DNA from: Escherichia coli
GTDB taxonomy: Bacteria; Pseudomonadota; Gammaproteobacteria; Enterobacterales; Enterobacteriaceae
Strand: one strand, 5' to 3'
Length of the DNA stretch: 64,000 bases
NCBI RefSeq assembly: GCF_024700885.2
Contig: NZ_CP117016.1
Part shown: positions 9,423 through 9,623 of the stretch, piece after piece
Layout: each line of letters begins with the position of its first letter
Numbering within the stretch: position 1 is the first letter of the stretch
Program-made: the position numbers and the translations under genes
Notes under the pieces: model-generated
Databases searched by the model: none
Told to the model about the DNA's origin: nothing
The model's input: only the letters and a program-made list of their open reading frames with translations

Positions 9423-9623
9423 ATCAACATTCTCATAGAGAGTAGATTTTTACCGTTATCATATATAAACACAAGTCATCTGGTTATCCGAATCACTATA
9501 TTTAAAGCAATTAGGTTTAAACATGCACTCCTGCGCTAACTTTTTGCTCAAGGCGGAGTGGCTGTTGGAGTCTGAGCCAGTACAACTTAAAATAGAACCA
9601 GCACCACGTTAAGGGAGGTCGCT

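Follow-up and report, generated by a model that had tools for sequence, protein, structure and literature searches.

A mosaic gap between a cargo gene and the late-gene activator ogr in a P88-like prophage of Escherichia coli

Results

A cargo gene lies between D and ogr at the prophage end

The window analyzed here is a 64,000-nucleotide stretch of an Escherichia coli genome (NZ_CP117016.1), in which a P2-family prophage, inserted beside ihfA/pheT, has its right end at positions 1 to ~10400. Among phages, this prophage is closest to the P88-like Peduoviridae (genera Xuanwuvirus and Gemsvirus), and positions 7900-10300 are identical to E. coli strain E-1246. The genes and features of the region are listed in Table 1. 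The tail sheath gene and the tail gene D diverge from a 155-bp spacer (6877-7032) in which no exact TGT-N12-ACA box was found; D and ogr therefore make up a rightward unit of their own, unlike the single FETUD-ogr operon of P2. Between D and ogr lies a cargo gene that is antisense to both neighbors. Downstream of ogr, the hok/gef gene occupies the very end of the prophage; it is conserved in P88-like phages, whose annotation for it is 'MokW-like host killing'. Upstream of the hok/gef gene is a match to the Rfam sok family (9929-10088; 49 bits, under the gathering score of 59), and a match to the STnc540 sRNA family (10423-10579, minus strand; 37.3 bits versus a gathering score of 38) overlaps the 3′ end of ihfA. 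The Rfam search of 7900-10600 with E values up to 1 returned sok-like and STnc540-like matches at these places only and nothing in the gap between the cargo gene and ogr. Three terminator-like hairpins were located on the minus strand between ihfA and the prophage end (10224-10400).

The gap had been described in a sequence-only reading as about 200 bp of AT-rich DNA separating a 386-aa gene from ogr. The length was borne out: 201 bp separate the minus-strand GTG at 9422 from the plus-strand ogr ATG at 9624, or 216 bp if the cargo gene starts at ATG 9407. Besides these two, ATG 9416 is the start annotated in RefSeq, and the equivalent of ATG 9407 is used by most of the 38 aligned homologs; no convincing Shine-Dalgarno sequence was found at any of the three candidates. 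The description as AT-rich held for one half only, since 9423-9520 has a GC content of 28.6% and 9521-9623 one of 50.5% (39.8% for the whole gap versus 50.2% for the entire window). The step at ~9520 divides DNA resembling the 32% GC cargo gene from DNA resembling the phage backbone.

Table 1 Features of the D-ogr region and further copies of the boundary element. Coordinates are window positions unless a locus is named.
Feature	Position	Strand	Evidence or remark
Tail sheath gene	5692-6876	minus	
Tail gene D (baseplate hub)	about 7033-8131	plus	Pfam Phage_GPD, E 3e-17; Shine-Dalgarno GGGAGGG and ATG
Conserved boundary element	8144-8197	plus	nhmmer profile, E 5.9e-11; between the convergent D and cargo genes
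Cargo gene, 381-386 aa, 32% GC	8262-9422	minus	open reading frame; GTG start
Cargo 5′ flank, 29% GC	9408-9521, weaker homology to ~9551 in two of three close relatives	minus	alignment
Nearly invariant non-coding block TATGATAACGGTaAaAATCtAC	9441-9463	minus	four-way alignment; overlaps candidate -10
Candidate cargo promoter: -35 TTGTGT, 17-nt spacer, -10 AAAAAT	9474-9469 (-35), 9451-9446 (-10)	minus	positional conservation
ogr promoter and leader module, 50% GC	9540-9623	plus	blastn junctions; alignment; last 100 nt of 14 slot types
Pogr -35 TTGGAG	9565-9570	plus	17 nt upstream of the -10
Pogr -10 TAAAAT	9588-9593	plus	aligns with the annotated P2 ogr -10 (TAAAATG), NC_001895 23996-24002
ogr Shine-Dalgarno AAGGGAGG	9611-9618	plus	invariant among P88-like relatives
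ogr, zinc-finger late-gene activator	9624-9884	plus	Pfam Ogr_Delta, E 5.2e-14; RefSeq name
hok/gef toxin gene	10075-10215	plus	
ihfA	10521-10820	minus	
Boundary-element copies in locus L133	2490-2541, 4341-4378		
Boundary-element copy in locus L134	2498-2549		
Boundary-element copies in locus L014	5273-5304, 6251-6306		

The gap straddles the right-hand junction of an insert in a variable slot

Homology to the P88-like D gene ended at 8121/8122. By blastn, homology on the other side of the insert resumed at 9540 in the slot type carrying a PIN-domain gene, at 9564 in the GmrSD, DEC5B and 520873 types, and at 9580-9584 in P88, S103EC and 500465-2. With junctions at these sites, the gap 9423-9623 straddles the right-hand junction of the insert. 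The stretch 9540-9583 might be read as a relic of an alternative D 3′ end or as an inverted repeat; the first reading was disfavored by an identity of only ~48% to the real 3′ end and by a lack of database support.

In P88 and strain S103EC, ogr follows D after 42 bp. Other prophages have the slot filled, on either strand, by a gene for a PIN-domain protein or GmrSD, or by one of several hypothetical genes (132, 340 or 355 aa). The slot was surveyed in loci from IMG/VR (L019-L132) and RefSeq (L008, L009 and L011). Scanning IMG/VR for an exact pattern of the ogr leader retrieved 114 loci, 109 of which had the D 3′ end upstream. Among these 109 viral contigs, the slot was empty in 65 (53-55 nt) and occupied in 44. 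The occupied loci fell into 17 length classes of 931-4054 nt, which were reduced to 14 distinct cargo types once near-duplicates were merged and are counted here as at least 14; the 1502-nt insert of the window was present in two of the loci. PADLOC gave matches to HerA with SIR2, PifA, PDC-S06, bSEFIR, PDC-S31 and a PsyrT-like phosphoribosyltransferase (pair) among the sister-slot cargo, and RefSeq names added GmrSD and PIN. Half of the cargo types match known or candidate defense families, while about six types are of unknown kind. The PADLOC matches mark the D-ogr slot as a defense-type hotspot, and the earlier likening of the gene to defense cargo is supported by the known defense genes that sister prophages have in the same slot. 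Two published surveys of P2 hotspots describe gpA-gpQ and tail hotspots (PMC9122126; bioRxiv 10.64898/2026.02.27.708500), and the second of them adds unspecified hotspots 'within the late genes'; neither ogr nor gpD is mentioned in the main text of either. The D-ogr slot of P88-like prophages is a variable site that these surveys do not highlight.

A palindromic boundary element lies at the left edge of most occupied slots

Most occupied slots share the architecture of their edges. In 12 of the 14 sister types, the left flank consists of the D stop codon, GAGCAACTTAGA, TGCATTAGCTCAGACC and a 55-nt element containing GTCCGCTCTGTGCCAGAAGCGGAC, and the right flank of sister slots ends in GTCTGAGCTAGTA followed by CAACTTAGA and then ATAGC. 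CAACTTAGA is thereby repeated at both slot ends in 12 of the 14 types, with short inverted repeats just inside. The boundary element of ~55 nt comprises two overlapping palindromes and includes an inverted repeat that forms a hairpin with 15-bp arms (8147-8185; -22.1/-23.5 kcal/mol, z -5.25/-4.56). A single copy was present in each of 32 of the 44 occupied loci, empty loci had none, and 601 of 5426 E. coli genomes contained the element. Copies outside the slot were found just past the tail-fiber assembly gene of another P2-like prophage, where a partial inverted copy lies beyond the cargo, as well as in a CP4-like island and beside the Serratia homolog of the cargo gene.

The profile of the left element matched the right flanks of five of the 14 types, as inverted copies only (E 3e-6 to 0.02, with a best shuffle of 0.15), and pairwise tests for inverted repeats were significant in only two of the 14. 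In the window, the right flank of the slot gave no match to this profile, so that the left copy alone is detectable. No base-pair covariation was observed for either possible hairpin, with 74-76% of cells paired, the same as in shuffles. The element had no Rfam match, and literature searches by its sequence and by the cargo protein accession found nothing relevant. It may serve as an exchange arm, represent a transposition relic or act as a terminator.

The left edge of the slot in the window departs from that of its relatives. A deletion of ~31 nt appears to have removed the native stop codon of D together with the left CAACTTAGA repeat, fusing D to a remnant of the insert end, GCGCAGACCTAAAT (8122-8135). 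As a result, gene D ends in ...EWIAQT* in the window versus ...EWIAETE* in relatives, with its last three codons and stop at 8122-8131, and a direct repeat at both junctions is not present because the left CAACTTAGA copy is absent. An origin by transposition is a conjecture.

The ogr-side half carries a conserved promoter module

The ogr promoter and leader module is common to all occupied D-ogr slots, whatever their cargo. Its promoter, Pogr, was recognized as TTGGAG-17-TAAAAT, the best plus-strand site of the gap in a position weight matrix (PWM) scan (11.5 bits, about the top 5% of tiles); its -35 matches the consensus at only three of six positions (TTG, as in the TTGTTT of P2). In each of the 120 P88-like loci examined, the top-scoring site within 110 nt upstream of ogr coincided with the Pogr position. 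The -35 differed with the state of the slot: in all 53 occupied loci it read TTGGAG, TTGGAA, TTGGAT or, in two loci, TTAAAG, giving totals of 10-12.8 bits, and in all 67 empty loci it read TAGCGG or TAGCAG, giving 7.6 bits. The 45-60 nt upstream of the Pogr -10 (consensus CAGTTGGAGTCTGAGCnAGTACAACTTAGAAT) were kept in every occupied slot with either orientation of the cargo. Pogr is accordingly predicted from these motifs to be an active promoter. In occupied prophages, ogr presumably relies on it because 0.9-4 kb now separates ogr from D, and the better -35 of occupied slots may compensate for the lost read-through from D. In the P2-like prophage BTP5, Owen et al. report transcription of ogr in lysogens under all conditions tested (PMC7067206).

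The same half of the gap also includes a 29-codon open reading frame (9523-9612) that ends in the ogr ribosome-binding site, and it might be supposed that the gap itself encodes a product, either this peptide or a small RNA. Both the window and several sister slots keep this frame open and would yield similar peptides (LLESEPVQLKIEPAPR-like), but the commonest sister type has an in-frame stop, most types lack a start codon, and tblastn of the peptide found nothing; the in-frame stop and the failed tblastn led us to reject the frame as a gene. A small RNA is countered by the lack of an Rfam match at E values up to 1 and by local folding with z scores of -1.1/-1.9. We regard a gap-encoded product of either kind as extremely improbable. 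The hairpin at 9527-9561 was also considered as an insulator and rejected, its fold not being significant (z -1.1/-1.9).

The cargo-side half travels with the cargo gene

The proposal that the cargo gene has its own upstream region was supported by comparison with its homologs: 114-145 bp 5′ of the start are co-inherited with the gene, and homology ends there, in four other contexts (phage phi458, a plasmid, the chromosome of a Serratia and a lambdoid prophage of Atlantibacter). When four sequences were aligned, the window was 64-66% identical to three relatives (phi458, Serratia and Atlantibacter) over the 114 nt preceding ATG 9407, a stretch in which these relatives were 89-93% identical among themselves. 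The next 31 nt (9522-9552) retained 55% identity to two relatives, and identity beyond was 30-33%, equal to random. Since homology falls to the random level past the flank, the flank moves with the cargo gene. It was not shared by distant homologs (59% identity), one of which sits 8 nt after a recombinase gene. The autonomy of the upstream region is thus supported by these alignments.

The top sigma-70-like site in the 170 nt upstream lay at the same aligned position in all five homologous sequences and scored 7.95 bits in each; in the four others it reads TTGTTT-17-CACAAT. Transcription of the cargo gene is predicted to start at ~9439. An alternative -10, TATGAT (9463-9458), lies within the nearly invariant block 9441-9463 and scores 6.4-6.6 bits. 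These 7.95 bits of the candidate promoter are the best minus-strand PWM score in the gap; the best scores of random 240-nt window tiles have a median of about this value. The strongest local sigma-70-like match, TTGATA-17-TATACT (9199-9171, minus strand; 10 of 12 positions, 15 bits), falls within the coding sequence of the cargo gene and in the same orientation. Strong internal matches of this kind are typical of spurious promoters in AT-rich foreign genes. The call of the cargo promoter consequently rests on position and not on strength, because its score is near the random median and stronger matches lie inside the gene. A consensus scan of 7900-10600, set to report sites matching 9 or more of 12 positions, gave none in the gap, and its total count equaled that of shuffles. 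The earlier statement that -35 and -10 elements could not be assigned was therefore apt for the cargo side, with its weak site only, and did not stand for the ogr side, where the site is clear.

These weaknesses bear on the possibility that the gap contains no working cargo promoter, the gene being silent in lysogens or transcribed from an internal promoter or by antisense read-through of ogr-hok, with the flank merely hitch-hiking. In line with it, besides the median score, the empty consensus scan and the stronger site within the gene, third codon positions of the cargo gene are 61-67% identical, equal to the 64-66% of the flank; selection on the flank is for this reason not demonstrable apart from the 23-nt block 9441-9463, and its conservation could reflect neutral hitch-hiking. 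A cassette of 32% GC is a typical H-NS target. The AT-rich foreign DNA could thus be silenced, which would again suit a gene without a working promoter. Against this, homology in four unrelated contexts always takes in the flank and halts just past it, the 23-nt block is nearly invariant, and the best site is positionally kept in all five copies. The terminator-like hairpins would block read-through from ihfA, and cargo in such slots normally runs from native promoters (PMC9122126). On balance, we consider the absence of a cargo promoter unlikely; the conserved site is a putative promoter from which the gene may be expressed in lysogens.

Accessory loci antisense to lytic genes carry their own promoters (PMC7067206). 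Toward the cargo gene, ihfA read-through faces the three hairpins described above, and on the D side the strong hairpin of the boundary element lies 77 nt past the cargo stop codon; it lacks a U-tract and escaped the terminator scan, so its role as a terminator is putative. P2-type late promoters have an activator site, TGT-N12-ACA, ~55 nt upstream of the start. No exact match to this Ogr box was found in 9380-9640, and the single one-mismatch match (9454-9471) is out of register with either candidate promoter. The antisense layout, the hairpins and the absent Ogr box would fit transcription of the cargo gene independent of the late operon.

The gap is divergent in geometry only

The sequence-only reading had treated the gap as a single AT-rich control region. 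This was not supported, as the gap consists of two unrelated halves with the ogr promoter in the half of normal GC content. The two candidate promoters stand back to back, with their -35 elements ~90 bp apart, and no shared operator, repeat or dyad linking the halves was found. Integrated bidirectional control, with a single regulator (such as the phage repressor, Cox/Apl or Ogr) acting on both genes at shared sites, could draw on this divergent geometry and on the length of the gap, which is similar (191-201 bp) in three of the six types whose cargo is on the minus strand. The halves, however, differ in origin and are joined at 9521-9564; neither a linking repeat or dyad nor a TGT-N12-ACA box is present, the -35 elements are ~90 bp apart, and the same ogr module stands beside at least 14 unrelated cargoes in either orientation. 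Shared control is accordingly judged very unlikely, and only the geometry of the arrangement is divergent.

The cargo protein belongs to an uncharacterized family

Of 5426 complete E. coli genomes, 19 have the cargo gene, with 98.9-100% identity. Copies with 71-75% protein identity were found in phage phi458, on plasmid pHNAH212872-4, where the gene adjoins a type II restriction-modification pair, on a Serratia chromosome and in the nin region of an Atlantibacter lambdoid prophage; on IncF-type plasmids, copies with 39% identity have AbiH and PIN genes as neighbors. The family is widespread and comprises 109 homologs, mostly from Gamma- and Epsilonproteobacteria, every one of which is named hypothetical and none of which has a Pfam domain. 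The cargo protein had no PADLOC, NCBIfam or PHROG match, and its AF2 model (pLDDT 89.5) gave no significant fold match. Family members are 360-385 aa long and carry the motifs CSCMDW and FASWP, and residues invariant across 38 homologs include C52, D54, W55, S85, D88, E92, R139, H145, R249 and E292. The invariant R139-x5-H145 corresponds to the R-x4-6-H motif of HEPN-domain proteins as a pattern match only, and neither a HEPN fold nor a match to a HEPN family profile was found. The protein represents an uncharacterized family and is a lead as a defense candidate.

Discussion

Four points were observed directly: the gap is a mosaic, the slot varies in content, Pogr is conserved at a constant position, and the cargo flank transfers together with its gene. 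Taken together, they are probably best explained by a chimeric junction, at which the flank of a mobile cargo with its own weak promoter abuts the conserved Pogr and nothing is shared between the two. According to this explanation, the cargo-side 100-145 bp (9408 to ~9521/9551) would be the 5′ flank of a mobile single-gene cassette and would most likely carry its own weak sigma-70 promoter (TTGTGT, AAAAAT) and a short leader. The ogr-side 60-85 bp (9540/9564-9623) would constitute the ogr promoter, leader and ribosome-binding site AAGGGAGG, the promoter matching P2 Pogr in position, and the two promoters would fire outward, away from each other. In P88-like prophages, the cassette would fill the variable D-ogr slot. 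When the slot is filled, its right-hand flank would donate a TTGGA-type -35 absent from empty slots, and ogr, cut off from D and supplied with this -35 by the flank, would therefore keep an independent promoter.

A bolder scenario combines the palindromic 55-nt bracket and its inverted repeats, as a site for exchanging defense cassettes, with the rebuilt ogr -35 and with a 381-aa cargo protein that would be a new, self-expressed anti-phage protein. The bracket would then cover the D-ogr slot, at least one other P2-like hotspot and some chromosomal islets. We put this forward tentatively, as a possibility that we think unlikely.

The layout as such, a cargo gene with its own upstream DNA in a prophage slot, is ordinary. 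The leads of note are the cargo protein as a defense candidate and the promoter-restoring flank with the boundary element. That filled slots keep a better ogr promoter than empty ones offers a small example of a phage preserving control of an essential regulator beside inserted cargo, and a boundary element recurring beside cassettes at other sites could bear on cassette swapping.

Several known systems resemble the locus in part. P2 Pogr (annotated at NC_001895 23973-24002) is likewise directly upstream of ogr with a similar leader length, and shares the identical -10 TAAAAT, the 17-nt spacer and a -35 beginning with TTG. In P2, however, D and ogr are separated by an 81-bp spacer without cargo, whereas D lies 1.5 kb away in the window; the predicted -35 is here in a flank specific to occupied slots, and that of empty P88-like slots is poorer and falls within the 3′ end of D. 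Prophage morons, which Juhala in 2000 and Cumby in 2012 reportedly described as autonomous accessory cassettes, are similar in being a single dispensable gene (the slot is empty in 60% of relatives) with deviant GC content (32% versus 50-53%), antisense to lytic genes, with its own flanks and a downstream hairpin; transcriptomic examples of morons are given in PMC7067206. Unlike in morons, the hairpin has no U-tract, and the putative cargo promoter is a weak match to the consensus. At the gpA-gpQ (old/tin) and Z/fun defense hotspots of P2-like phages (PMC9122126; bioRxiv 10.64898/2026.02.27.708500), conserved core genes also flank rapidly swapped cargo, with known defense systems such as SIR2-HerA, PifA, bSEFIR and GmrSD among the cargo of the D-ogr slot; the location differs, being here between D and ogr of P88-like (Xuanwuvirus/Gemsvirus) prophages. 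Finally, the sister slots recall the hybrid promoters created by insertion elements with an outward -35, as the inserted module, ending in ...CAGTTGGAGTCTGAGCTAGTA beside the repeated CAACTTAGA, gives the -35 and resident DNA gives the -10. In contrast to insertion elements, no transposase is present, the inverted repeats are significant in some slot types only, and the left repeat has been deleted in the window.
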